Shown here: one piece after another, positions 5,953 through 56,557 of the stretch
Layout: each line of letters opens with the position of its first letter
Numbering within the stretch: the first letter of the stretch is position 1
From: a virus
IMG/VR virus record: IMGVR_UViG_3300009514_000013
Coordinates: 1 to 64,000 of that record
DNA: 64,000 bases
Direction: 5' to 3' (one strand)
Translations under genes and position numbers: made by a program
Notes under the pieces: model-generated
Seen by the model: only the letters and a program-made list of their open reading frames with translations
What the model was told of the DNA's origin: nothing
Databases searched by the model: none

Positions 5953-6577
5953 CAGAAATATCCGTTCCTTCAAACTCGATATCGAACGACAACACATCGT
6001 CGAAATCATCAACTTCAACTGTCTTGAGAATACGCCTCAATAGTTCTCTTTTTGCTCGTTGATACAACTGTTTGTTCTCAAGCCTTACTGTGCATCGAAG
6101 AGGCATTACAAACGTCTCTTCTTCAGGTTCCTTCATCTCTTTTCCGCAACCTTTGCAAGTTGCTCGGAACCCGTTGAATGCTAGACATGATGAGCACTGC
6201 CCTTCTGCAATTCGAAACCTCGTCTTGCGGATGCTTACCTTCTTGTCTGTAAACGAATCAGAGTGCTCATGGGTGAAGAACTCGTCATGTAGATCATTTC
6301 CAAGATCAACACCATCAGGCCACCAGTTTTGTTGTGTTTCTCGCCGTTCAGCTTCAATTCCTTTGTTCGTTTTTGTTACCAGTTTGAAAGCAGGAGTCAT
6401 CTGAGGAGCAAAGCCATCAAACAGAACCAACATCGAATGAGCAAAACCAGCCAGTTTGGCTTGATATGTCACTGCTTCTTTCCGTTCGACCCAAAAGTTG
6501 ATGAGTGACCAAATTGTTTGGAAGAGCTTTTCTCGCATCTCTTCTTGGTTCATTTCTCGATTTACAGGTTTCTTCAT
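5939..6577 (-). CDS. hypothetical protein with zinc ribbon
   Basis: CSSC...CKGC. Confidence 0.6.
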   Translation of the reverse strand: MKKPVNREMNQEEMREKLFQTIWSLINFWVERKEAVTYQAKLAGFAHSMLVLFDGFAPQMTPAFKLVTKTNKGIEAERRETQQNWWPDGVDLGNDLHDEFFTHEHSDSFTDKKVSIRKTRFRIAEGQCSSCLAFNGFRATCKGCGKEMKEPEEETFVMPLRCTVRLENKQLYQRAKRELLRRILKTVEVDDFDDVLSFDIEFEGTDISDEEG

Positions 6578-28027: not shown

Positions 28028-29172
28028 AATACGTCATTGATACGGAACTGGAACCCATAGCAGTTGTGGTCCACTCCAAGGATCAGTCTCACTATGTCTC
28101 GTTTGAACCACATGAAGAGGAGATCATCTCGGCGGATGAGAACGAACCTGAGCCAGATCCTGTGGTGGAACCAGATCCAATCATCGAGGTGCAACCTGAT
28201 CCAGAACCAGAGCCTACACCTGTCACTGAACCTGAACTACCGTTTGAGGTGAACAAACCGGTGCTTCCGAATTCAACAATCTCACGTGGTCATCGTGAAG
28301 GTCTGATCTATGATCCGGGTGTTTATACCTTAAATGGTGATGTTGGAAATCTTGTATTGGCAATTGATGATGTGACGATTGATTTCAATGGGCACTCGGC
28401 AGCTTCTGTGATTATTGCGAGTGGAGTAGGCAACGTTGCTATCAAAAATGGACGAGCTGATCATGTTGTATGCGAGTTCAATTATCGAGACAATCTTGGG
28501 AATGTGAATCAGGTGTACGATAGAGTTGGTAGCCATGATCTCTTTTTCGAAGACATGGTCATTCACTCGGACACGCAATCAGCTCTCAGTCTACGTGGTC
28601 AGAGAGTACACATGTTGAGGTGCAATTTGTTTTCTCGTGACAAGTACGCTGTTTGGGGTGGTGGTATTTCCAACCAAGAAGACTTTCTGTTCGAACAGTG
28701 TGAATTTCGTTCAGGTGGACCGCAAGCTGTGTTCCGTATACATGACGCGTATCGATCACTAGCTTACAATTGTCTGTTCAGGAGTGGTGACCTGGGAGAT
28801 GCCAAGCACGCGTTCCGCTATCATTGTAGTGATAGAAATTCTAGACACTTCGAGACTGGAGATCTTCAGTGGCCGAACCGTCCTGAAGAGCTTCCTGCAC
28901 ATGATCTTGCAATGGTGAAGTGCACTGTGACTGGTTCAGGTAACGGGATCATGTTGGCGAAGACTTCCTCTGAACGAGGTATTGAGGATGTACACTTGAT
29001 CGAGTCAACGTTTGAGGCATCTGGTGTTGATCGATTCAACTTGAATGTTCCGATGATGAGAAGAGTCACGGTGACTGGGAACAATGTTGAGACTCATGGT
29101 GGTGGGGATCCTTACGGACCATATCGGAATCTTCCACAAGATTGGACTTGGGAACGTAACACATGGACCTGA
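28024..29172 (+). CDS. protein with Pro/Glu linker and right-handed beta-helix (pectin-lyase-like) domain
   Basis: EPEPDP linker; PGVYTL..DDVTIDFNGH..NVAIKNG motif and repeated beta-helix turns. Confidence 0.6.
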   Translation: MKYVIDTELEPIAVVVHSKDQSHYVSFEPHEEEIISADENEPEPDPVVEPDPIIEVQPDPEPEPTPVTEPELPFEVNKPVLPNSTISRGHREGLIYDPGVYTLNGDVGNLVLAIDDVTIDFNGHSAASVIIASGVGNVAIKNGRADHVVCEFNYRDNLGNVNQVYDRVGSHDLFFEDMVIHSDTQSALSLRGQRVHMLRCNLFSRDKYAVWGGGISNQEDFLFEQCEFRSGGPQAVFRIHDAYRSLAYNCLFRSGDLGDAKHAFRYHCSDRNSRHFETGDLQWPNRPEELPAHDLAMVKCTVTGSGNGIMLAKTSSERGIEDVHLIESTFEASGVDRFNLNVPMMRRVTVTGNNVETHGGGDPYGPYRNLPQDWTWERNTWT

Positions 29173-29917: not shown

Positions 29918-30077
29918 GAGGGATCTTTATAGGTACACACCGAATTCACTACGTTGGGATCTCATGCATGGTGTCGCTCACCCTTTGGGAGATGCATTAC
30001 GCTTGTCTTTGATTCTCAAGGTTGAGGCAGAACTAGAAAGGTATAAAAATGGAGAAAATCAAAGAACTAACACCTGA
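29907..30077 (+). CDS. degenerate SLxx-like microprotein (start uncertain)
   Basis: DLYR..NSLRWDLMH..HPLGDALRLSL..ELE 4-residue Leu periodicity. Confidence 0.4.
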   Translation: MRIKRDLYRYTPNSLRWDLMHGVAHPLGDALRLSLILKVEAELERYKNGENQRTNT

Positions 30078-31002
30078 ACAGAAAGCCGAGATGGTTGTCT
30101 GGCGAAAGCGATGGTTTGACATTGGGTCATGTTGCGATCCAGCTGACAAGCCAAAAGCAGAAGCAGCCATCTCGAAGATGTACGAGCTCATCGGTCAGAC
30201 TGCACCAAAGTTCATTTGGTGCAAGAGTCCACTTGATGCAAATCGAGAGATTCACCGCTACTCAAAAGGGTTACCGGCTGATCATTCTCTCGAAGGTGAA
30301 GACATCGAAATCCAGGGGGCATACCAATGGGGGCAGATGGACTCCTACTGGATTTCTTTCTACCTCTTCTGTCGGGATGTAGTTGGTGTTGAGTACTCTG
30401 AGAAAGATTCAGAGACGTTGGACCTATGGTCTGAGATTGCTCAGTCTTGTGGTTGGTGGTGGCCTTATGAAGGTGTGTGTTTTGTGTCTGACCGCCCTCT
30501 TGCGGTTCATTGGGAAGACGATCGGGATCCTCCTAGGATTCACAATCCGAATGGACCAGCTGTGGAGTACCGTGATGGATTCAAGGTCTACGCTATTCGG
30601 GACATCCGGGTAGAGCCAAGGATTATCGAGAATCCAGAAACCATCACGTTCGAGGAGATACTCAGAGAGCGAAACGCTGAGATCCGTAGAGTCCTACTCA
30701 GGCAATACGGTGAAGAGCGATTTGTGAATGATTCGCGAGTGAAGATGTTTGCCCAAGATGAAGAAGGTATCCTCTATTCGATTGATGGTGAGGACATCGA
30801 CTTCATGTTGCTCAAGGTCATCAATTCAACGCCTGAACCAGATGGTAGCCTTAAGCCGTATTTTCTCACGACGTTCACTAGTACTGAGACGACGAGAGAG
30901 AATACTGGTATCGACTACCACGGACCATGGACACCTCACGCAGCTAGAGCGATCAGCTTCAAGATTCATCCAGACAAGTTCAATTGTTTGATGGAGACCT
31001 AG
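30049..31002 (+). CDS. DUF6745-domain protein
   Basis: IKELTPEQ, WCKSP, WGQMDSYW, SCGWWWPYEGVCFVSDRP, IHNPNGPAVEYRDG, ERNAEIRRV, VINSTPEPDGS..YFL. Confidence 0.8.
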   Translation: MEKIKELTPEQKAEMVVWRKRWFDIGSCCDPADKPKAEAAISKMYELIGQTAPKFIWCKSPLDANREIHRYSKGLPADHSLEGEDIEIQGAYQWGQMDSYWISFYLFCRDVVGVEYSEKDSETLDLWSEIAQSCGWWWPYEGVCFVSDRPLAVHWEDDRDPPRIHNPNGPAVEYRDGFKVYAIRDIRVEPRIIENPETITFEEILRERNAEIRRVLLRQYGEERFVNDSRVKMFAQDEEGILYSIDGEDIDFMLLKVINSTPEPDGSLKPYFLTTFTSTETTRENTGIDYHGPWTPHAARAISFKIHPDKFNCLMET

Positions 31003-34331: not shown

Positions 34332-36317
34332 ATGGCTGAACACTCTCTCCTCCACATCCGCAACCGAGCGATCCAGAAAGCCAGAGGCAACTACAACCAC
34401 TACGCCGAGTTCGCTCTTCGCAACAACTTAGGAGACCACATCAGGCAGGGAGTCCTTCACCGCATCTGGCAGGTTCACATCCAGCACTGTTGGAAGCATG
34501 GGTACGATCCAGCAATCCTGGCCCCATTTGCTCACGGAAAGTGCCAGCCCAAAGGTTCGTTGGTCCAAATGGCCGATGGGTCGAGAGTTCCTATTGAGAG
34601 GATCAACGGTGAACAAGTCATTGGTTTCGATGAAGAGGAATACTCGTTCTCTCCATCTTCTGCCCGGTCATTCCCAAACGGAGTCAAGCGAGTCCTCAGG
34701 TTGAATCTATGGTCTGGTCGTTCTGTTGAAGTAACCGAAAATCACCCACTCCTGACGGCCGATGGGTGGTCTCCAGCTACCAAATTGGAAGTGGGTGATC
34801 ATGTAGCTGTGTCTCGTAAAATTCCAGACGTTGGTCGTACTCGTCTACGTGAAGGTGAGGCGCGACTAATTGGGTATTTCATTGGGGATGGGGGGACAAC
34901 TACACGTCCGATTTTCACAGTAGCCGATGAAGTGATTGAGCAATCCTTTTGTGAGACTGCGAGGGGGCTTGGGTTTGATCCCAATTCTCACTGTTACCAA
35001 AAGACAGCGAAGACGGTATATGTCAAAGGTGCTAGGAAGTGGCTTCGTAGCATAGGCCTTCTTGGTTGCAACTCGCACACAAAGCGCATCCCGGAGAGCA
35101 TCTTCAAGGCACCTCTAGATCAGGTATCCGAGTGTCTCGCTGCTTATTTTGAATGCGATGGTAACGTCTCCACACAACGTACAGGGTCCGCTGAATACTA
35201 TTCGGTTAATCGAGATTTGCTTTCCGATGTCCAATCTCTCCTCCTGCGGTTCTCAATCAGATCTCAACTCAGACGAAAACGAGGTCGTTACAATGGTGAA
35301 GTTCACGAGTCTTGGCGCCTGACGATCACAGGGAGTGATAACCTCGAATTGTTCAGAGATCAGATTCCTGTGATCGGTTCGAAGCGGGAGAAGCTAAAGT
35401 CGATTCAATTGGTCAAGGCAAATGCGAATGACGATGGGGTACCTCTAGTGTACCGTGAGTACCTGTATCAAACTCCTTATTGGCATAAGAGGAATACCGG
35501 TGTTTCTCTCGACCAAATGTCAAAAAGGACTACCAACCGAGAGACTGTTCGGAAAGCAGCCTTAGCTGAAGGAAACAAGTATCTGATGAACTTGGTTTCG
35601 GATTGGGTGTCGTGGGATCGAATCGTATCGATTGAAGACATGGGTGAATTGGAGACCTTTGGGTTGGAAGTCGATCGTCTTCACACGTACATCACTAATG
35701 ACGTCATCGTTCACAACACGATTCAGCTAGTCGTTGGTTTCCCAACATTCCTACTCGGACAAGATCCAAACCAACGCATCAAGGTCATCTGTCAGAATGA
35801 CGTCAGAGCCATGGAGCGCGTCATGGGTATCTCTGCAATCATCAGATCAGCTCCTTACCAGGTCCTGTTCCCAAACGTCAGAGAGGTACCAAGAGAGCTC
35901 GCTAGGAAGAAAGGTCTACAGTCCAAATGGACTTCTCACGAGATCTTCTTACACAGAGAAGGCTTCGCCATTGACCCATCCGTTCAAGCAGCAGGCGTCC
36001 TCTCAGGCGGTACTGGTGGCCGTTGCGATCTCCTCATCTTTGACGATGTTGTTGACCAGAAGAACGCCATTGACCAACCAGAACTCAGACAGAAGGTGAT
36101 CGACAACGTAGACAACGTCTGGTCTCAAAGGCTCGAGCCGACAGGTAGAAAGCTCTTTGTAGGAACTCCATGGCATCAGGCCGATCTGACCCACAAACTC
36201 ATGGAGAGGCCATCCTGGTCGGTCTTACGCAACTGGATATCCGAAGACTTCAAACGGATTGAGATGGAGGTCTACAATCCACCACCTGGCTATCCGATTC
36301 CTGTGCTTCAGGAGTGA
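34332..36317 (+). CDS. terminase large subunit, N-terminal ATPase half, with intein
   Basis: APFAHGK/T Walker A split by intein; TGGRCDLLIFDD Walker B; GTPWHQADL motif III; no nuclease domain. Confidence 0.88.
   Translation: MAEHSLLHIRNRAIQKARGNYNHYAEFALRNNLGDHIRQGVLHRIWQVHIQHCWKHGYDPAILAPFAHGKCQPKGSLVQMADGSRVPIERINGEQVIGFDEEEYSFSPSSARSFPNGVKRVLRLNLWSGRSVEVTENHPLLTADGWSPATKLEVGDHVAVSRKIPDVGRTRLREGEARLIGYFIGDGGTTTRPIFTVADEVIEQSFCETARGLGFDPNSHCYQKTAKTVYVKGARKWLRSIGLLGCNSHTKRIPESIFKAPLDQVSECLAAYFECDGNVSTQRTGSAEYYSVNRDLLSDVQSLLLRFSIRSQLRRKRGRYNGEVHESWRLTITGSDNLELFRDQIPVIGSKREKLKSIQLVKANANDDGVPLVYREYLYQTPYWHKRNTGVSLDQMSKRTTNRETVRKAALAEGNKYLMNLVSDWVSWDRIVSIEDMGELETFGLEVDRLHTYITNDVIVHNTIQLVVGFPTFLLGQDPNQRIKVICQNDVRAMERVMGISAIIRSAPYQVLFPNVREVPRELARKKGLQSKWTSHEIFLHREGFAIDPSVQAAGVLSGGTGGRCDLLIFDDVVDQKNAIDQPELRQKVIDNVDNVWSQRLEPTGRKLFVGTPWHQADLTHKLMERPSWSVLRNWISEDFKRIEMEVYNPPPGYPIPVLQE
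34542..35717 (+). mobile_element. intein with LAGLIDADG homing endonuclease (392 aa)
   Basis: CQPKGS N-terminus, TENHPLL block B, LIGYFIGDG and LAAYFECDG, IVHN/T C-terminal junction. Confidence 0.93.
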
Positions 36318-46167: not shown

Positions 46168-46621
46168 TGATTCCTAAACCATCTCCATGGTCCAAGTGGG
46201 TTGTTAAATCTCTACAGATTGTAGGTGGAACCTTCTTGGGGTCTCTCATAAGCATGTTGGCAAGCAACTTCTTCCCTATATCACCGGGATTTCTACTTCT
46301 TTTGTATGGTCTCTCATGCTCCTGGGGTGTCGTCTTCATCACCGACCTCATGATTTTCTGGTCAAAACGTAAAAAGTCCTGATAAGGAAGAACGTAATGA
46401 AAAATGAACACCAAGCTGTCGTACTAGCAATGGCTCAGCACATTTACAAAGATCTTGTCGCCAAGAACATCACTAGTGAAGTGATGACGGATCCACCAGA
46501 AGGAGAAAAAGCTGACCAACTTGCCGACGCTCTAGGCAACGCAGCTGTCTTCTCAATCCAGGCTGCTGAGATCTTCCTCGCATCAGCAGAAGGTTGGTTT
46601 GGTGACGAAGAGGGTAAGTAA
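46167..46621 (+). CDS. two small ORFs (46167-46382 membrane protein; 46397-46621 hypothetical)
   Basis: hydrophobic segments; coupling; AAGGA RBS. Confidence 0.5.
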
Positions 46622-47421
46622 TGGCTGTTGCTCTCATTAAAGAAGACATTGATCGTTGGTTCGAATATGGAGTCTACCCGCGAACAAGGACGATCTACTT
46701 AGGTGGTATTCATGGATACGATCATGGTGAAGATGAAGACCATTTGGGTGAGTCTGGGATCTATTGGAACACCGCACGACGGATGATTCAGAGCCTACAC
46801 TTACTTGATAGCAACATTGATCAACCTATTACTGTTGTGATGAATAGCGTTGGTGGTGACTGGCAGCATGGAATGGCAATCTACGATGCGATTCGTTTGT
46901 CAAAATGTCATATAACGATCATTAACATGTCTCATGCTCGTTCCATGACGAGTTTGATTTTCCAAGCAGCCGATCTGCGCATCATTGCACCGAACGGCTA
47001 TTACATGATTCACGATGGGACCAGTGGATTTGGAGGTATCCCAAGATCAGCTATCAACTGGATACAGTACGAAAAAGATGTGATCTTGCCAAAGATGTAC
47101 AGTATTTATTTGGAACGTATCAAAGAGGTGGATGGTAAAGGGGAGTACAAAGTTGACATCCACGAAGCAGCTGAGATTTTGAATTCGAAAATCCCAGATG
47201 GTTCAAAGCGAATTCTTCCATCGAGAGGGATTGAAGGTATCAAACTCTCTCATATTCAAGCTCTTTGTTCTCAAGATACGATCTTCACACCTACGGAAAT
47301 GATCCGACTTAACTTTGTTGATCGGATGATGGAAACTGGTGATCTTGTGGGGGCTTATGTGAATCCGAAGATGCATGGTCTTCCGACAGGATTGGAGAGT
47401 CTTCAAGATGAAGACGAATAG
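46621..47421 (+). CDS. ClpP-like protease
   Basis: RTIYL, MNSVGG, AIYD, ARSMTSLI, YMIHD. Confidence 0.8.
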   Translation: MAVALIKEDIDRWFEYGVYPRTRTIYLGGIHGYDHGEDEDHLGESGIYWNTARRMIQSLHLLDSNIDQPITVVMNSVGGDWQHGMAIYDAIRLSKCHITIINMSHARSMTSLIFQAADLRIIAPNGYYMIHDGTSGFGGIPRSAINWIQYEKDVILPKMYSIYLERIKEVDGKGEYKVDIHEAAEILNSKIPDGSKRILPSRGIEGIKLSHIQALCSQDTIFTPTEMIRLNFVDRMMETGDLVGAYVNPKMHGLPTGLESLQDEDE

Positions 47422-49331: not shown

Positions 49332-50105
49332 GTGTCAATTCCAATCCGTCTCAAGTCGATTCCTCTATGGGTTGAACACTGGTCAGAAGAATCACTCCGG
49401 AAGAGATACTCCCAAGAACCAAGAGCATTCGAACGCGGATTCAGACTCAAGGCATTCTCTGATGATGAAGCAACATTCCCGAGCTTCTCCCAATGCGAAG
49501 TCCCTGGGATCACTCTTGGAGAGATTCAACGATCGAACTGGCCCAAGTTCACAGGAGTCGACCTCTCATCTAAGAAGCGTCCTGGTAACACCATTGCCAC
49601 GGTTGCAGTCGATCCGAAGACAAGACGTCGATATCCCATAGACATTCGATATGGTGCCTGGAGGTCATCTGAGACGGCTGAGCAAATCCGTATTGTTGAT
49701 GAACTCTTCAGCCCGATGGTTATCATGGTTGAAGACAACGCTTACCAAGAGGCTCTCCTGGATTGGATCTCTGATGACAAGTCTCGGTTTCCGTATTGGG
49801 TTAAGATCGAAGCCACTACCACTACAGGTGGTAGAAAGTCGGATCTAGAGAAAGGTCTCCCCGGACTTGAGGTCGAATTCTCGAAAAAGGGTTGGGCGTT
49901 TCCCCTATCCGAGTATGAGAATGTGACTCCTGATGAGGCACCACCAGCTGGCCACTGGGCGCGTTTAGCCCAAGAACTTCGCCATCACCCCATTGCAGCT
50001 ACATCGGACGGTGTAATGGCTTTGTGGTTCGCCAGGCAAGGTATTGAACTCTACGGCGGAATGGCTTTCCACGATGTCCAAATTGGAGACTTGACAGTCC
50101 GCTAA
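49332..50105 (+). CDS. terminase large subunit, C-terminal RNase H-like nuclease half
   Basis: PLW.E.W linker, FTGVDLS, VEDNAYQ, SDGVMALWFA; GGAGG RBS before GTG. Confidence 0.82.
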   Translation: MSIPIRLKSIPLWVEHWSEESLRKRYSQEPRAFERGFRLKAFSDDEATFPSFSQCEVPGITLGEIQRSNWPKFTGVDLSSKKRPGNTIATVAVDPKTRRRYPIDIRYGAWRSSETAEQIRIVDELFSPMVIMVEDNAYQEALLDWISDDKSRFPYWVKIEATTTTGGRKSDLEKGLPGLEVEFSKKGWAFPLSEYENVTPDEAPPAGHWARLAQELRHHPIAATSDGVMALWFARQGIELYGGMAFHDVQIGDLTVR

Positions 50106-50120
50106 CACTAATTTGATCTT
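50091..50120 (+). promoter_or_regulatory. candidate promoter TTGACA-N18-GATCTT for downstream ncRNA
   Basis: perfect -35; same N18 xAxxxT geometry as other candidate promoters here. Confidence 0.45.
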
Positions 50121-50129
50121 TTATAGGTT

Positions 50130-50316
50130 GTGCACGCAAACGTGACGGAGGGTCGTAAAAGGAGTACTGGTGGTCCGGGTTGCGACGGAGAAGCCTGCGA
50201 GACTGGCGTATACAGGGGGATGAGACACATGCTGAAGCCCCGATACCAGTCAGGTGGCATTGTGGTTCCGACTGCGATGTTCATCAGTTGTGTGACGATC
50301 GGGAGAGACCGATATC
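50130..50316 (+). ncRNA. candidate structured RNA or leader upstream of the tmRNA-like element
   Basis: nested stems GTCGTAA/TTGCGAC, GACTGG/CCAGTC, GCATTGTGGT/ACTGCGATGT, ATCGG/CCGAT; no convincing ORF. Confidence 0.45.
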
Positions 50317-50396
50317 GGGGATGAGAAGGGTTCGACAGTCTGATGAAATCCTGAAAGGGACCAGGCTGGACCAGCGTTCGATTCGCTGCATCTCCA
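50317..50396 (+). ncRNA. tmRNA tRNA-like-domain-only RNA (mini-ssrA-like)
   Basis: acceptor GGGGATG/CATCTCC-A with G3.U70; GGTTCGAC D-loop analogue; helix CAGTCTG/CAGGCTG; GAC; T arm CAGCG-TTCGATT-CGCTG. Confidence 0.78.
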
Positions 50397-50433
50397 TTGA
50401 AACCAGGTGGGCAAATGAGCCTAGCTTTATTGG

Positions 50434-50631
50434 ATGCGTATGAACTCGGTAAGAAAACATGCTCTCAAAGCGGGAATGGCCAACTCCATGTGGACCCCTG
50501 AAGATATCCGTGAAATTCGCAAGTTGAGGGAAGAGGGTTCCTCTTACAAGGAAATCCTTTACATGTACCCGATGTCCAAATCCACACTTTCCTACATTGT
50601 GAATTACAAAACCCATGTATCATCTCTCTAG
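50434..50631 (+). CDS. small HTH protein
   Basis: WTPEDIREIRKL..SYKEI..MSKSTLSYIV. Confidence 0.6.
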   Translation: MRMNSVRKHALKAGMANSMWTPEDIREIRKLREEGSSYKEILYMYPMSKSTLSYIVNYKTHVSSL

Positions 50632-50639
50632 AGAAAGAG

Positions 50640-53160
50640 ATGGACTCATACTCCAAATCGGATTTCGAACTTCTTGTTTTTGAGAGTGGGATAGCATTCT
50701 CCATCCGAGAAAAAGGCGGTAGCAAAGCAAGATTTGAGAACGTGTCGATAGATGCTATTGGCATTTCAACAAGTGGTTTTCTTTATGGATATTGGTACCC
50801 GATAGATGCGGATTTCCCGACTCGCATCACTGGAGTTTCTTTCAAAGCGGTGTGCGAATTCTGCGAAAGCGAGATGGTTGTCCGTCGCATTACGAAGAAA
50901 CCTGCTCAGTTCAGTGTGTCTTGCAAAGAGTGTAAAAGAATTCTGAATGTTCCGAATCGTCCTCCGCTACGTCTGGTGATCAACAACAAAAAATGATGTA
51001 GGTGTTGATCAATGAGTGATTACGTCCGTGGAGACATCGTTAATCTAAACCGTGCTCAAAGTTCTCAAGTTGAGATTTTGACTGTCCCGACAACCGAAGA
51101 TGAACCGTACACAATAACACTTCCGATCAACGAAGAATATAAGTCTTTCACATACTTAGCATCGGTTGATGATTCGCTATCAGATGTTGCGTTTGGCCTC
51201 GAAGATGTTCTAGAGAAAGAACAAACCAAGTTCTCAGTTGCTGTGAATGACGATCAGGATGCTGTTGTCATCGTTGGACCGTTGGGTCTGTCATTTGAAG
51301 GCACTACCTCAACCAATCTTCGGTACTCGCTCATTGAAGACGCAGTTCGAGCCATTCGTCACGATACTGGTGAAAAGATTGGAAACTGCCGTGTCCTCGC
51401 TTCGGAGAATTCTTTGGAGAAGCTTCGGGAATACGCTACAAGAGATCGTGATGGTACTGTTCGGATTGTGAATCAGATCCGGTTACGAGAATTGAATTCG
51501 GCTAATGTTTTCGAAGTGGAAGCTGATGAGATCCTCACAGTCATCGAAAGAGAAGGAACCGCATGATGGAGAAGACGTGTGTGAACTGTGGGGATGAGTT
51601 CGAGACAGATAACGAGGACTGCCATTGGTGTTCTGAGTCTTGTTGGGGAGAAATAGAAAACCTTCAACTACAGACACACGATTCGTACCACGAAGAAATC
51701 GGTGTTTCAGAAGCAGACAAGGCCCGAACAGCATTATCGTCTCCTATGGAAACAGAGATTTCAGAAGACGTAGAAAAACCATGGACGCGGGATTTGGCGG
51801 TAGCTGAACGACTTGTTGAGAGTGCAGAAATTGCCAACGATCCAAATGACGTTTCCTTTTTGATCGATCTTGCTTCTAGCTATCTGCAACGTGCTCGAGA
51901 TAGCGTCCAACCATTTGTAAATCAAAGGGCTAGCTGATGTTTCAGATTAAAACGTTCGATTTGCCGGTCACTTACAACGAAGTAGGTAATCGGGAAGTGC
52001 TAGAAGACTTCGCCAGAACCAGACTTCGGAGTGACATGAAAAAGATGGGGTATGAAATTATTCCTTCCTCTTTTCGTGTGGTTTGGTATGAATCATCTCG
52101 CGGTGTGGCTACTGCCAATGGCCTTCCGATCAAAGGAGTTAGTTGATGAAGTATGAGCTTGAATTGGATGACACCGGCAATCGGTACTGGTTGTGTACGC
52201 TAGATGACGGTACGCAAGAAGCGATTCCGCCAGGATGGAAATTGGAACTAGGTTCGGGTTCCTGGACTGTCGAAGGTACAAACCACGGGCTTCCGATTGG
52301 AACTGTGGTCGCGGTCGAATTTCCTGAGAATCCAGAAGAGAGGAAGAAAGAATCTCTCTTGAAGCTATTACGACGCTCTCTGCAGAAGTCTTTCAAAGCT
52401 GAAGGATTGGAACTGTCTGACGAAGAAGCTGACGAGAAGATCCAACAGACGATTGATGAGATTCTCGAGAAAACCAAGAACCCCGATGTCTTAAGAGCGA
52501 AATCGTCACTTGAAATTCCTGAGCCACCGCAAATCCTACCTGGTGAACAGAAGATTGTTGATCAGTTGATAGGGGCAGGTTTCGGACGACATGGCTGAAT
52601 CGAAATCACAGACTTCTGAAGCACCTCTAGTAAGACGTTCGGATGTAGAAGTCTTGGATGATCCTCGTCAGATTCGACTGACTCCCAAACAACGGGAGGA
52701 GATGGATCGGAAAATCTACAAGACTTGGAGAGCTGTTCAAGATGGAATTCCAGAACAGAGGCACACTCCTCGAATTGATCCCTACGATGTTGCTCAGATC
52801 GAACAAGACCAGATGCAGGAAGCTGCTAAGAAACCTGAGGTCTGGAAAAAGATCATGGAATATTATGGTTTCACCTGGTATTCAGCTTCTGATCTCGATG
52901 CTCATCCCATGGTAGGACCAGCTCGCTACCGAACTAGAGATCAGAGAATCTTTTTGAAACCTCAGCCTTGTGGTCAATGGAGAAATGACTTGGAGATCCA
53001 AGAAGGTTTTTCTAATCCTCCAGAACGCTTGAAAATGGCTTTCACCTTGAAGGACCTCATCCTTGGATTTCGAACACCTGAGCAATTCGACAAATGGATG
53101 AAGAAACAGATTTCCGCAGTGATTTCGACCCAAATGCGAATGAGCCGAAATTCCGTATAG
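50640..53160 (+). CDS. run of six hypothetical ORFs (50640-50996, 51012-51566, 51563-51937, 51937-52146, 52143-52598, 52591-53160)
   Basis: tile the strand with overlaps; two carry CxxC pairs. Confidence 0.55.
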
Positions 53161-53336: not shown

Positions 53337-55055
53337 ATGGCTGGAATCGATATGTCTTTTGGTGGTCAAGAATTTCCGAGAGCGTTGGAGGTTCGCCAAT
53401 ACCTCTACAACAATGCGATCTTAGGGCAAACGACTAGGCTCCGAACTTTGGATCGATTGGATGCTTTCTACAAAGGTCTTGAATATGCTCACCACCAAAC
53501 CGGATGGGATGGATTCTCCGCAGATCAATTAGAGACGATTTCTCCTGATGCCACTAAACCGTTAGGTTTCACCAAACCAGCCGACAAGACCATGGTTGGT
53601 CAAAAGCGACCAACAGCACCTCTTCGTTTGACCGGAACGGTTGTGGATCGGTTCACAGGCCTCCTCTTCTCGAAGAAGCGTCTACCCAAAGTCACGATTG
53701 AAGATGATCAAGAATCCAACGACTTCGTCCAAGCCGTATTCAAGAAGACACGGTTTTGGAGAACTATGTACAACTCCCGAACCTATGGCGGTTCGATGGG
53801 CTCTTCTTTGATCACAGTTCAGTTGAGGAATGGTCGTTTCTCGTTCAAAGCTCATAGTCCCAAGACGATTCAAGACATCGTTTGGGAAGATCCAGATCTC
53901 AAGATACCTGCTGGAGTTCTCATCCAGTACATCTATTACGTGGAAAAGGATGAAGTAGATCCGAAGACAGGTGCTCCGACTGGAACAATGAAGAACTGTC
54001 CTTATCTCTATCGAAGGATTATAGATGCTGAGTGTGACGTCATTTTCAAACCGGCTGAGATTGTGAACAACAAACTTCCTGAGATGGAGATTGATGAACA
54101 CCAAAGCTACCAGCATAGATTGGGAGAATTCCCTGGAGTCTGGATTCAGAACCTTCCATGTGAAGAAGAAATCGATGGCGTTGCCGATTGCGAAGGTGTC
54201 TATCAGATCTTCGACACAATCGATCGGCAACTGGCTCAATCGAACAAGGGGTTGTTAGCCAATCAGGATCCTACAGTTGTCCTTTCGATTGATAAGAAAC
54301 TCATGTCGGCAGGAGTTCCTATCCACAAAGGATCTGAAAATTCTTTGAATGTTGGAATGGGTGGATCAGCCAACTACTTGGAGATATCTGCATCGGGAAT
54401 CACAGCAGCAAGAGAATTCGTCAAAGACTTGAAACAAGCTGCAATGGATCGAGCTCAGGTTGTTCTTGCTGATCCTCAGACGATGGCTGGTTCAGCACAG
54501 TCTGCTTTAGCAATTGAGTTTCTTTATCAACCGATGCTCGAGAAAGCTGACAGGTTACGAGAGCAGTATGGTCAAGCGATTGAGGTTCTTGTTGACCTAC
54601 TGTTGAAGTTGGGTCGGATTTGGTCGGATCCGCTTCGATATGAAGGAAATGCGAAACCTAAGTTTGATTTGCCTCCGAAGATTGTTGAGATGGATTCAGA
54701 TCCCGAGAATCCAGAAGCTGAGATGGGTGTTCAAAAGCTCAAAGTGTTTCCAGTACCCGGAGAAGGTTCTCAGGTAGCATTGTCTTGGGGTCCTTACTTC
54801 TCGCCTACTCCTACAGATGTTCAGACGCAAATTGGTGTTGTTGCTACAGCTTATGGAGCTGGATTGATTGACCTGGACACGGCAGTCAGCAAAGTAGCTC
54901 ACATCCTGGATATTGAAGATGAAGAAGGTCTGTTACGGCGAGTGAAGGAAGAAAGCAAAAAGCGCAAAGCTGATGTGATGGCTAATTTAGAAGAAGCTGG
55001 AATGGGATGGCCTACCTCTCCAATTCCACGTCCAGAAGGTGAGGAACTCATATGA
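53337..55055 (+). CDS. portal protein (SPP1 gp6-like)
   Basis: 572 aa; H.LGEFPGV, SALAIEFLYQPML.KA..LR..YG pattern; precedes minor head, scaffold and capsid genes. Confidence 0.8.
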   Translation: MAGIDMSFGGQEFPRALEVRQYLYNNAILGQTTRLRTLDRLDAFYKGLEYAHHQTGWDGFSADQLETISPDATKPLGFTKPADKTMVGQKRPTAPLRLTGTVVDRFTGLLFSKKRLPKVTIEDDQESNDFVQAVFKKTRFWRTMYNSRTYGGSMGSSLITVQLRNGRFSFKAHSPKTIQDIVWEDPDLKIPAGVLIQYIYYVEKDEVDPKTGAPTGTMKNCPYLYRRIIDAECDVIFKPAEIVNNKLPEMEIDEHQSYQHRLGEFPGVWIQNLPCEEEIDGVADCEGVYQIFDTIDRQLAQSNKGLLANQDPTVVLSIDKKLMSAGVPIHKGSENSLNVGMGGSANYLEISASGITAAREFVKDLKQAAMDRAQVVLADPQTMAGSAQSALAIEFLYQPMLEKADRLREQYGQAIEVLVDLLLKLGRIWSDPLRYEGNAKPKFDLPPKIVEMDSDPENPEAEMGVQKLKVFPVPGEGSQVALSWGPYFSPTPTDVQTQIGVVATAYGAGLIDLDTAVSKVAHILDIEDEEGLLRRVKEESKKRKADVMANLEEAGMGWPTSPIPRPEGEELI

Positions 55056-55576: not shown

Positions 55577-56557
55577 ATGGCTGATCCTTTTACCAAGAGG
55601 TTATTTGAACTTCATCTGAATCAACTCCAGAGACACGTTCGAAAGAATGGTGTTAAAGGCCTGGAATCTTTGTATAAAGAAGCTAAAGCTGACTTGTATG
55701 ATCGTCTCCTCCAGGCTGGTGGTAGTTCTGCAACAACGCCAACAGCACTCCAATTGAGAGCGATGATTGCCCAAGTAGATGCGGTTACAGAATCTCTTGG
55801 AAAGAATTTGAATAGTCATCTCAAAGACATATCAAAGTCTGCTTCTGAAATGGGTGCTCGACACGGAATTGATGAGTTCAAGAAGTTGGAGAAACATTTC
55901 ACGGGGAACGTTCCAGTCCTTCAAATTGAAACTGCTGCTCAACTTAAAGGTCTTGTGAAAGATACAACTTCGTCGCTACTCCGTCGCTATAGTCTTGCTT
56001 CGTCTGTTTGGAGTAATCAGGCCATTCAGGACATCGAGCAAGCTATGTCTGTTGGTTCAATGGCTGGTAAGCCAACCAATGACATCATCCAGGAAGTGAT
56101 GGGGAAAACCGGCATCCTGGAACAAGAAAGATGGAGAGCTGAGAGAATTGTTCGGACCGAAACAGCATTTGCTCATGGCCGGTCAAAATACGATGCGATG
56201 AAGCGAACCTCGGAAGAGCTTGGAGAGAAGAAACTCTACAAACGATTGATCGAGACTTTAGACAATCGAACTGGTGATGACTCTTTTGTTCTCCATGGTC
56301 AGACAGTTCCAATCGATGAACCGTTTCGGTGGAAGCACAAACGAGCTGGTTCTTGGGTCGTGACAGAATACCAACATCCTCCAAACAGACCGAATGACAG
56401 AGCTGTTGTGATTCCGTGGGATCCATCATGGGAAGAAACTTCTGGTGAGCGCCCATTGACGCGAGCCGAACTCAATACAGCACCTCCCACAAGATGGCGA
56501 AAGAAAGCAGGAGTTGAGATCCCACCTGGCCATCGTCCTGGTAAACCGGCTAGATAG
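55577..56557 (+). CDS. minor head morphogenesis protein (SPP1 gp7 / Mu F-like)
   Basis: RAERIVRTE, D.RT, LHGQTVPIDEPF, PPNRPNDR. Confidence 0.85.
   Translation: MADPFTKRLFELHLNQLQRHVRKNGVKGLESLYKEAKADLYDRLLQAGGSSATTPTALQLRAMIAQVDAVTESLGKNLNSHLKDISKSASEMGARHGIDEFKKLEKHFTGNVPVLQIETAAQLKGLVKDTTSSLLRRYSLASSVWSNQAIQDIEQAMSVGSMAGKPTNDIIQEVMGKTGILEQERWRAERIVRTETAFAHGRSKYDAMKRTSEELGEKKLYKRLIETLDNRTGDDSFVLHGQTVPIDEPFRWKHKRAGSWVVTEYQHPPNRPNDRAVVIPWDPSWEETSGERPLTRAELNTAPPTRWRKKAGVEIPPGHRPGKPAR

Follow-up and report, generated by a model that had tools for sequence, protein, structure and literature searches.

Within the packaging and head module of an uncultured phage lies an 80-nt element that has both ends of a transfer-messenger RNA (tmRNA) and none of its message, and the question that it raises is what such an RNA is and what it could do for the phage. 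The element occupies positions 50317–50396 on the plus strand of the stretch of DNA analysed here (the window: 64,000 nt, positions 1 to 64,000 of virus record IMGVR_UViG_3300009514_000013), and an earlier note, made from the letters alone, had read it as a complete tRNA-like domain (TLD) of a tmRNA without a tag-coding domain. Bacteria rely chiefly on trans-translation for ribosome rescue and quality control, and the pathway is a drug target. We find that 50317–50396 is very probably a phage TLD-only tmRNA, tag-less and without a coding sequence (CDS-less), of the class first recognised in the RNA of Mycobacterium phage DS6A; we call it a mini-tmRNA. Our best explanation treats it as a functional gene, a function that we infer from sequence comparison, and RNAs of the class probably divert stalled host ribosomes from the tagging of proteins.

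The layout of the element is that of a tmRNA whose middle has been replaced by a short hairpin. The acceptor stem is formed by GGGGAUG (50317–50323) and CAUCUCC (50389–50395), seven base pairs of which the third is a G.U wobble (G3 at 50319, U70 at 50393), and the discriminator A (50396) is the last nucleotide of the gene. A 12-nt D-loop analogue without a D stem, AGAAGGGTTCGA (AGAAGGGUUCGA in its RNA form; 50324–50335), aligns with the tmRNA consensus GGaUUCGAC in the Rfam RF00023 alignment. Helix P2 joins CAGUCUG (50336–50342) to CAGGCUG (50362–50368) by seven pairs, one of them G.U, and encloses 19 nt (50343–50361): the A-rich 5' side of an internal loop, AUGAAA (50343–50348), an inner hairpin UCCU-GAAA-GGGA with a 4-bp stem (50349–50360), and an unpaired C (50361) directly before the 3' strand of P2. 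A GAC linker (50369–50371) then joins P2 to the T arm, CAGCG-UUCGAUU-CGCUG (50372–50388), with its perfect 5-bp stem and 7-nt loop. CCA is not encoded, as TTG stands directly 3' of the discriminator. The earlier note had picked out these same elements, and every one of them, coordinates included, proved correct. No tag frame, resume codon or pseudoknot (PK1–PK4 or a reduced set) is present in the element, in which the 19 nt between the P2 strands leave no room for them. When folded in a 236-nt context, the mini-tmRNA domain forms independently in both the minimum free energy (MFE) and the centroid structures (energy z −0.42).

Searches with covariance models identify the element as a tmRNA. 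A local Rfam search gives one strong match, to tmRNA (RF00023; 47.4 bits with a gathering score of 47, E 5.6e-18), in which model positions 1–374 are covered at both ends and 296 internal positions are reduced to 8 nt; in a search of the phage's own genome the tmRNA match reaches 56 bits, above the cut-off. No match is listed for the whole-window Rfam run at gathering thresholds, which is a filter effect, because RF00023 passes in both the local and the own-genome searches. We also used a covariance model (R1) from 15 other viral copies, from which the window copy and DS6A were excluded. R1 scores 68.0 bits at 50317–50396, its sole match on both strands of the 64 kb, and it finds this one site and no second copy in the 84-kb genome. 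As controls, real tRNAs in an array score at most 22.4 bits on R1, and pieces of real tmRNA genes 36–38 bits. These scores support the proposal of a tmRNA TLD without its tag domain.

A better fit to a canonical tRNA would have spoken against that proposal, and the opposite was found. ARAGORN calls no tRNA gene, no tmRNA gene and no tag peptide over the 64-kb window, and tmRNA is the best match of its clan in Rfam. A canonical tRNA (tRNA-Ala) was therefore rejected; no cloverleaf with a D stem and an arm carrying an alanine anticodon was encountered. For mt-tmRNA no match is listed in the local Rfam search, where overlapping matches of the same clan stay hidden. A protein-coding explanation was rejected as well: the four open reading frames (ORFs) that overlap the element have no PHROG match, and the covariation of the stems is unlike coding constraint.

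The element belongs to a large family. Copies were collected by pattern scans of viral contigs in which some positions are fixed by the patterns, and the totals are lower bounds. A strict layout pattern matched 11 other viral contigs, a corrected relaxed pattern at least 119 viral stretches, and an acceptor-free pattern at least 120; both scans and the window together hold at least 161 unique sequences. The class turns out to be common in phages. Among the matches listed, identity with the window copy is 80% at most, with a median of 69%. Lengths run from 63 to 87 nt and fall into a short form (63–67 nt), whose P2 is a plain hairpin, and a long form (74–81 nt) to which the window copy belongs, with one copy at 87 nt. 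The class is also virus-enriched: in a set of 185,579 prokaryotic species with one genome apiece the relaxed pattern gives 16 stretches, against at least 119 in viral contigs. When 15 of the prokaryote loci were scored with R1, 12 reached at least 55 bits, mostly on contigs of metagenome-assembled genomes (MAGs), two were pieces of real tmRNA genes (36–38 bits) and one had no match. ARAGORN, run on 94 unique copies, called two of them tRNAs, both odd calls that span the flanks.

Covariation is shown for all four helices of this virus-borne family. Copies are related by descent and the paired cells are not independent events, and a permutation control was used in which partners are exchanged among sequences. 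Over the 94 unique copies, the acceptor is paired in 657 of 658 cells at anchored positions (permuted mean 0.842), the T arm in 470 of 470 (permuted mean 0.625), and the outer seven positions of P2 in 631 of 658, for which the permuted mean is 0.516 and the maximum over 1000 permutations 0.579. A model-based alignment (A5; 84 matches, 70 distinct rows, fitted to the model structure) has 96.2% of its cells paired, compared with 65.3 ± 0.9% after shuffling (0 of 500 reach the observed value) and at most 48.3% with slid partners. Both partners have changed in 18 of the 23 pairs of this alignment, the three pairs of the inner hairpin among them, and the inner helix of the family is 93.2% paired. 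The single-stranded parts are conserved too: GG-N-UUCGA of the D-loop analogue is near-invariant, partly imposed by the scan patterns, and the GAC linker is invariant in the family alignment, where the patterns imposed it.

The acceptor end bears on whether the RNA is charged. The first patterns imposed GGGG...TCC, and an acceptor-free rescan was needed for that reason, anchored on the D-loop analogue, the linker and the T loop only. Among the matches listed, it brought 81 new loci with 67 unique copies, 64 of which pass filters on the T arm (5/5) and P2 (at least 5/6). G3:U70, which the pattern did not impose, is present in 63 of these 64, and the sole exception looks like a register problem. 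The discriminator A is found in 64/64 filtered copies and in 94/94 of the first unique set, no pattern having imposed it, and G1:C72 in 64/64, while pair 4:69 takes five forms. G3:U70 is the determinant for alanyl-tRNA synthetase (AlaRS), and alanylation is enhanced by SmpB (PMC3985003). Because a single substitution would strengthen the G.U wobble, and G3:U70 is nevertheless strictly kept, its retention points to selection for recognition by AlaRS. An alanine identity so close to invariant speaks for an RNA that is charged with alanine, and makes a passive sponge for SmpB less likely.

A second conserved feature sets the long form apart from a simple truncation. Among the copies listed, the positions after P2 read A (55/65), A (63/67), A (56/67), R (56/66), C (64/66) and C (57/65), and beyond a short loop G (53/66), G (61/64) and A (37/60). 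This AAAR-CC...GG-A module appears as AAAU-CC...GG-GA in the window copy and as AAAA-CC...GG-UA in DS6A. It may or may not descend from the P2a/P2b junction of tmRNA; the AAAR-CC motif is missing from the sole genuine full-length tmRNA among the loci (L135). A deletion scar would not be expected to show such conservation. One candidate function was considered and dropped: a stop codon (UAA, UAG or UGA) at the start of the internal loop might have served as a release signal, and many copies lack one (GGAAAGCC and CAAGGCC types), an observation for which no formal count was made.

The genes around the element place it in a late module. The virus record has 84,362 bases, is about 90% complete and encodes portal, head protease and terminase; the mini-tmRNA sits on the plus strand in a 328-nt gap within the packaging and head module. 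Its upstream neighbour (49332–50105, plus strand) is the nuclease half of the large terminase (PHROG 38 positions 485–699, E 4.4e-8), and its downstream neighbour (50434–50631, plus strand) encodes a 65-residue helix-turn-helix (HTH) protein (PHROG 11376, E 3.4e-7; weak matches to an HNH-endonuclease-associated family and to HTH_7). The head protease (46621–47421), the portal (53337–55055) and a head morphogenesis protein (55577–56557) lie further out on the same strand. The large terminase is apparently split into two genes 13 kb apart, its ATPase half (PHROG 38 positions 324–479) lying at 34332–36317; that gene also holds an intein (Intein_splicing 57.8 bits) in which a LAGLIDADG domain is recognised (LAGLIDADG_3 68.4 bits). 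A DUF6745 protein (145.8 bits) is encoded at 30049–31002 of the window.

Closer to the element, a small hairpin, AUCGG-GAGAGA-CCGAU (50298–50313, plus strand), ends 3 nt upstream of the 5' end and, when the 236-nt context is folded, forms in the MFE structure as well as in the centroid. A weak terminator-like hairpin with a T-rich run (50408–50433, plus strand) begins 12 nt past the gene; one such hairpin found against 0.6 expected in shuffles is not significant. The 211-nt upstream spacer holds no known RNA. Several repeats surround the 5' end. The first 10 nt of the gene (50317–50326) are one copy of a perfect direct repeat, GGGGATGAGA, whose other copy lies 101 nt upstream at 50216–50225, and a 14-nt inverted repeat (86%; 50238–50251 and 50307–50320) has one arm in the spacer and the other at the 5' end of the gene; these may be the trace of a recombination or part of a structured leader. 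A perfect 12-nt direct repeat, CGATGTCCAAAT (50072–50083 and 50570–50581), has the spacer, the mini-tmRNA and the greater part of the HTH gene between its copies, and together with the weak HNH-associated match of that gene it could mark a mobile cassette, or be due to chance.

Other family members are found in varied surroundings. In 25 of the 203 loci listed, the mini-tmRNA lies between genes for a Peptidase_S78 prohead protease and an HK97-type major capsid protein, with the portal further upstream in 19; since these 25 loci hold only 16 distinct element sequences, they are largely one phage clade. The order in this clade (e.g. L018, L160 and L204), all on one strand, is portal, S78 prohead protease, mini-tmRNA, HK97-type major capsid and head-tail adaptor, and the element starts about 190 nt ahead of the start of the capsid gene. 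A tRNA gene lies within 300 nt in 20 of the 122 loci listed, on the same strand in all 20. The window proteins have no more than scattered matches in the 122 element-bearing loci (22–36% identity), the window portal is 27.8% identical to Ralstonia phage portals, and a search with the protein of the terminase nuclease half found no related locus. The copy in a Myxococcales MAG (L133) is not close to the window copy, and its locus shares no gene with the window. Some contigs hold two copies: record IMGVR_UViG_3300027749_000047 (135,953 bases) has them at distant places (L181 and L202), viral locus L190 at 5–81 and 1317–1392, and L126, an array of 22 tRNAs whose contig was binned as an archaeal MAG, at 6146–6221 and 6308–6370.

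What would such an RNA do in an infected cell? Because no SmpB, RF-1/ArfB-type domain, Pth or CCA-adding enzyme was detected in the 84-kb record, the window phage is shown to depend on host partners, and SmpB is known to bind the TLD (PMC3985003). We lean, without strong conviction, towards a charged competitor, in which the alanyl-TLD bound to SmpB would rival host tmRNA and keep the products of broken messages from ssrA tagging. The mini-tmRNA would be transcribed together with the late packaging and head genes, trimmed by host RNase P and 3' enzymes, given its CCA by the host CCA-adding enzyme, charged with alanine by host AlaRS and bound by host SmpB. The complex would then compete with host tmRNA both for SmpB itself and for ribosomes that have stalled with an empty A site. 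On taking the nascent chain, an RNA with neither resume codon nor tag would let the proteins of broken messages escape the ssrA degradation tag, and the tagging-and-decay pathway of the host would be blunted in late infection. As to the fate of the ribosome after transfer, the candidates would be host ArfA/RF2, ArfB, drop-off or another round. Published observations agree with an inhibitory role: a similar molecule, chargeable or not, is described as a strong tmRNA inhibitor, perhaps through titration of SmpB (PMC4131195, citing Mao et al. 2009), and the DS6A form is reported to inhibit endogenous tmRNA in E. coli (PMC11915505, citing the same work).

Several points weigh against the charged competitor. 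The folding energy of the element is not special (z −1.29; 20 of 200 shuffles are as stable). No sigma-70-like promoter was found in 49900–50700, where 0.8 would be expected. The earlier note had looked to homologues in related phages, and this held in part: the family has at least 161 unique viral copies, but close relatives of the window phage are absent from the collections searched (isolate phages gave no megablast or blastn match). A TLD-only RNA cannot by itself release the ribosome. Lastly, inhibition by the model molecule did not need chargeability, as PMC4131195 describes it; titration alone could then suffice, and the alanine identity might serve something else.

This last point leads to the rival that the RNA is a passive sponge that soaks up host SmpB, charged or not, with no need to enter the ribosome. 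The D-loop analogue and the T loop are the regions that SmpB contacts, and their near-invariance in the family, partly imposed by the patterns, is what a sponge would call for. It would need neither a fragile G.U wobble nor A73, yet G3:U70 is kept in 63/64 copies and A73 in 64/64 while the adjoining 4:69 pair varies among five types, and we consider the sponge unlikely.

Improbable to about the same degree is productive tag-free rescue, in which the RNA would recycle ribosomes stalled on broken late messages, a host factor (ArfA/RF2, ArfB, or drop-off with Pth) would finish the task, and the loss of tagging would be a side effect. Conserved alanine identity and a position in late structural operons fit this explanation as they fit the charged competitor. 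Transfer of the peptide to a TLD-only RNA on the ribosome has been reported (PMC3895274, which cites Shimizu and Ueda 2006), and CDS-less mitochondrial forms, which co-occur with SmpB, have been read as still aiding with incomplete mRNAs (PMC11915505). Yet the RNA carries no release signal, no RF-1/ArfB-type domain or Pth was detected in the phage, and the published experiment, as described in PMC4131195 and PMC11915505, was one of inhibition and not of rescue.

The inner module invites a bolder and rather doubtful version, in which the long form would be a purpose-built alanine-charged RNA deployed with the late genes, the module would be a functional site, one that might position the RNA on the ribosome or recruit a release or hydrolysis factor, and stalled ribosomes would be freed after the addition of alanine alone. 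If this is true, SmpB-dependent ribosome rescue would have a third mode, tag-free and viral in origin.

Two further explanations look away from stalled ribosomes. By analogy with known defence systems, the RNA might be a decoy, a tmRNA or tRNA mimic that would occupy or mislead a host nuclease or sensor such as RNase R, anticodon nucleases or defence proteins with SmpB-like domains. Phages can turn t(m)RNA fragments against defence, and those bound by AcrIIIA1 are reported to bind RNase R (PMC11662646), and CoCoNuT systems carry SmpB-like domains with predicted tmRNA binding (PMC11090510); a decoy would nevertheless leave the strict alanine identity unexplained, the window shows no link to a defence or anti-defence gene, and we regard it as very unlikely. 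About as unlikely is a signal acting in cis, in which the tRNA-like fold would be a cut site for RNase P or RNase Z that separates late-operon messages. The location suits it, the gene lying inside operons on the coding strand, in the protease-capsid gap of the 25 loci described above, and here between the terminase nuclease half and the downstream genes. Any tRNA-like fold would serve that end, however, so that the tmRNA-specific D-loop analogue, the AAAR-CC module and the alanine identity would go unexplained, and 20 of 122 copies listed are in tRNA arrays rather than between protein genes.

An inert remnant, that is, a leftover ssrA attachment site or a decaying tmRNA gene, is extremely unlikely: phage attachment sites do often overlap the 3' ends of tRNA and tmRNA genes (PMC10865867), but both halves of the TLD are present and perfectly paired here, unlike the 3'-part-only attP remnant beside an integrase, the family covaries and has its inner module in common with DS6A, and neither tyrosine nor serine recombinases (Phage_integrase and Resolvase domains) were detected in the 84-kb record, which is about 90% complete, so that their absence is not proof. 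The earlier note had named a non-conserved remnant of ssrA integration as the finding that would undo its reading, and a conserved, covarying family with no integrase of either type detected is the reverse of that.

With the charged competitor as the favoured reading, a widespread viral RNA that engages AlaRS and SmpB without a tag would show how phages handle the late flood of broken messages, and an RNA of 80 nt would be a ready-made natural probe or inhibitor of trans-translation. Given how broad the class is, how strictly it keeps the alanine identity and that its inner module is conserved, why phages carry a tag-less tmRNA becomes a question that can be tested directly. Phage genomes are likely to be systematically under-annotated for the class, because it is missed by ARAGORN and by the whole-window Rfam run and is unannotated even in the GenBank record of DS6A. 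The opposite error also occurs: at two loci (L047, 5905–6228; L120, 11650–11973) ARAGORN reports a 324-nt "tmRNA" with a tag peptide. Both are false extensions built on the 3' end of the short element, and they are a trap for automated annotation. ARAGORN was also the tool with which the Melnitz paper counted tmRNAs of phages. Our literature search, which covered main texts, found no account of a phage TLD-only class that is widespread and extends beyond DS6A, and within the same scope no paper reports the breadth of the class, the strict alanine identity or the conserved inner module.

The tag-less phage tmRNA class itself is already published, and the window copy is one further member of it and not a new kind of element. 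DS6A is catalogued as "TLD only" by Hudson, Lau and Williams (2014; PMC4131195) and appears as "Phage__Mycobacterium.9" in a 2025 database paper (PMC11915505), which also describes CDS-less plastid forms of about 65 bp (Mallomonadaceae) and CDS-less mitochondrial forms. The statement in the earlier note that tagless tmRNAs come only from some protist mitochondria is therefore out of date, DS6A having been reported in 2009 and 2014 and the plastid forms in 2025 (PMC4131195, PMC11915505). We located the DS6A RNA at 28478–28557 of JN698994.1, in an unannotated gap between gp33 and gp34 (DNA polymerase III); it scores 61.5 bits on R1 and 34.7 bits on the Rfam tmRNA model, below the cut-off.

The DS6A RNA and the window copy have much in common. 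Both are phage-borne, about 80 nt long and located in unannotated intergenic sequence; each has G3:U70 in a 7-bp acceptor, discriminator A and a D-loop analogue that lacks a stem. In both, P2 leads into an A-rich internal loop and then a CC...GG hairpin, the T loop is UUCGAUU, and neither a tag frame nor CCA is encoded. The phages are unrelated, DS6A being a 60.6-kb actinophage of M. tuberculosis and the window phage an uncultured one of 84 kb. The sequences differ in that DS6A has GGUGGUCGA and a CAC linker where the window copy has GGGUUCGA and GAC, and the contexts differ in that the DS6A RNA precedes the DNA polymerase III gene whereas the window copy follows the nuclease half of the terminase.

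Compared with full-length tmRNA (ssrA, RF00023; in phages, for example, mycobacteriophage Bxz1 and Bacillus phage G, PMC4131195), the TLD ends, the D-loop analogue, the start of P2, the GGAC linker, the T arm and the alanine acceptor all align with the window copy, whereas the pseudoknots, the resume codon and the tag frame of the full-length molecule, about 296 model positions, are represented by 8 nt. The CDS-less organellar tmRNAs (jakobid and oomycete mitochondria, Mallomonadaceae plastids) keep the TLD while the tag frame is apparently absent, as in the window copy (PMC11915505); they use an imported, nucleus-encoded SmpB, whereas the phage gene must use that of its host. The closest parallel in design comes from laboratory TLD constructs, in which the TLD is combined with a capped P2 (PMC3985003, PMC3895274); the T. 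thermophilus construct, crystallised with SmpB, joins the 5' 25 nt and the 3' 34 nt by UUCG, and another is the TLD-only substrate of Shimizu and Ueda (2006) (PMC3985003, PMC3895274). Such constructs bind SmpB and reportedly take up the peptide on the ribosome. The natural short forms (63–67 nt) are about the size of these constructs, but the constructs are man-made, whereas the window copy is natural and, being of the long form, has a conserved internal loop and hairpin in addition.

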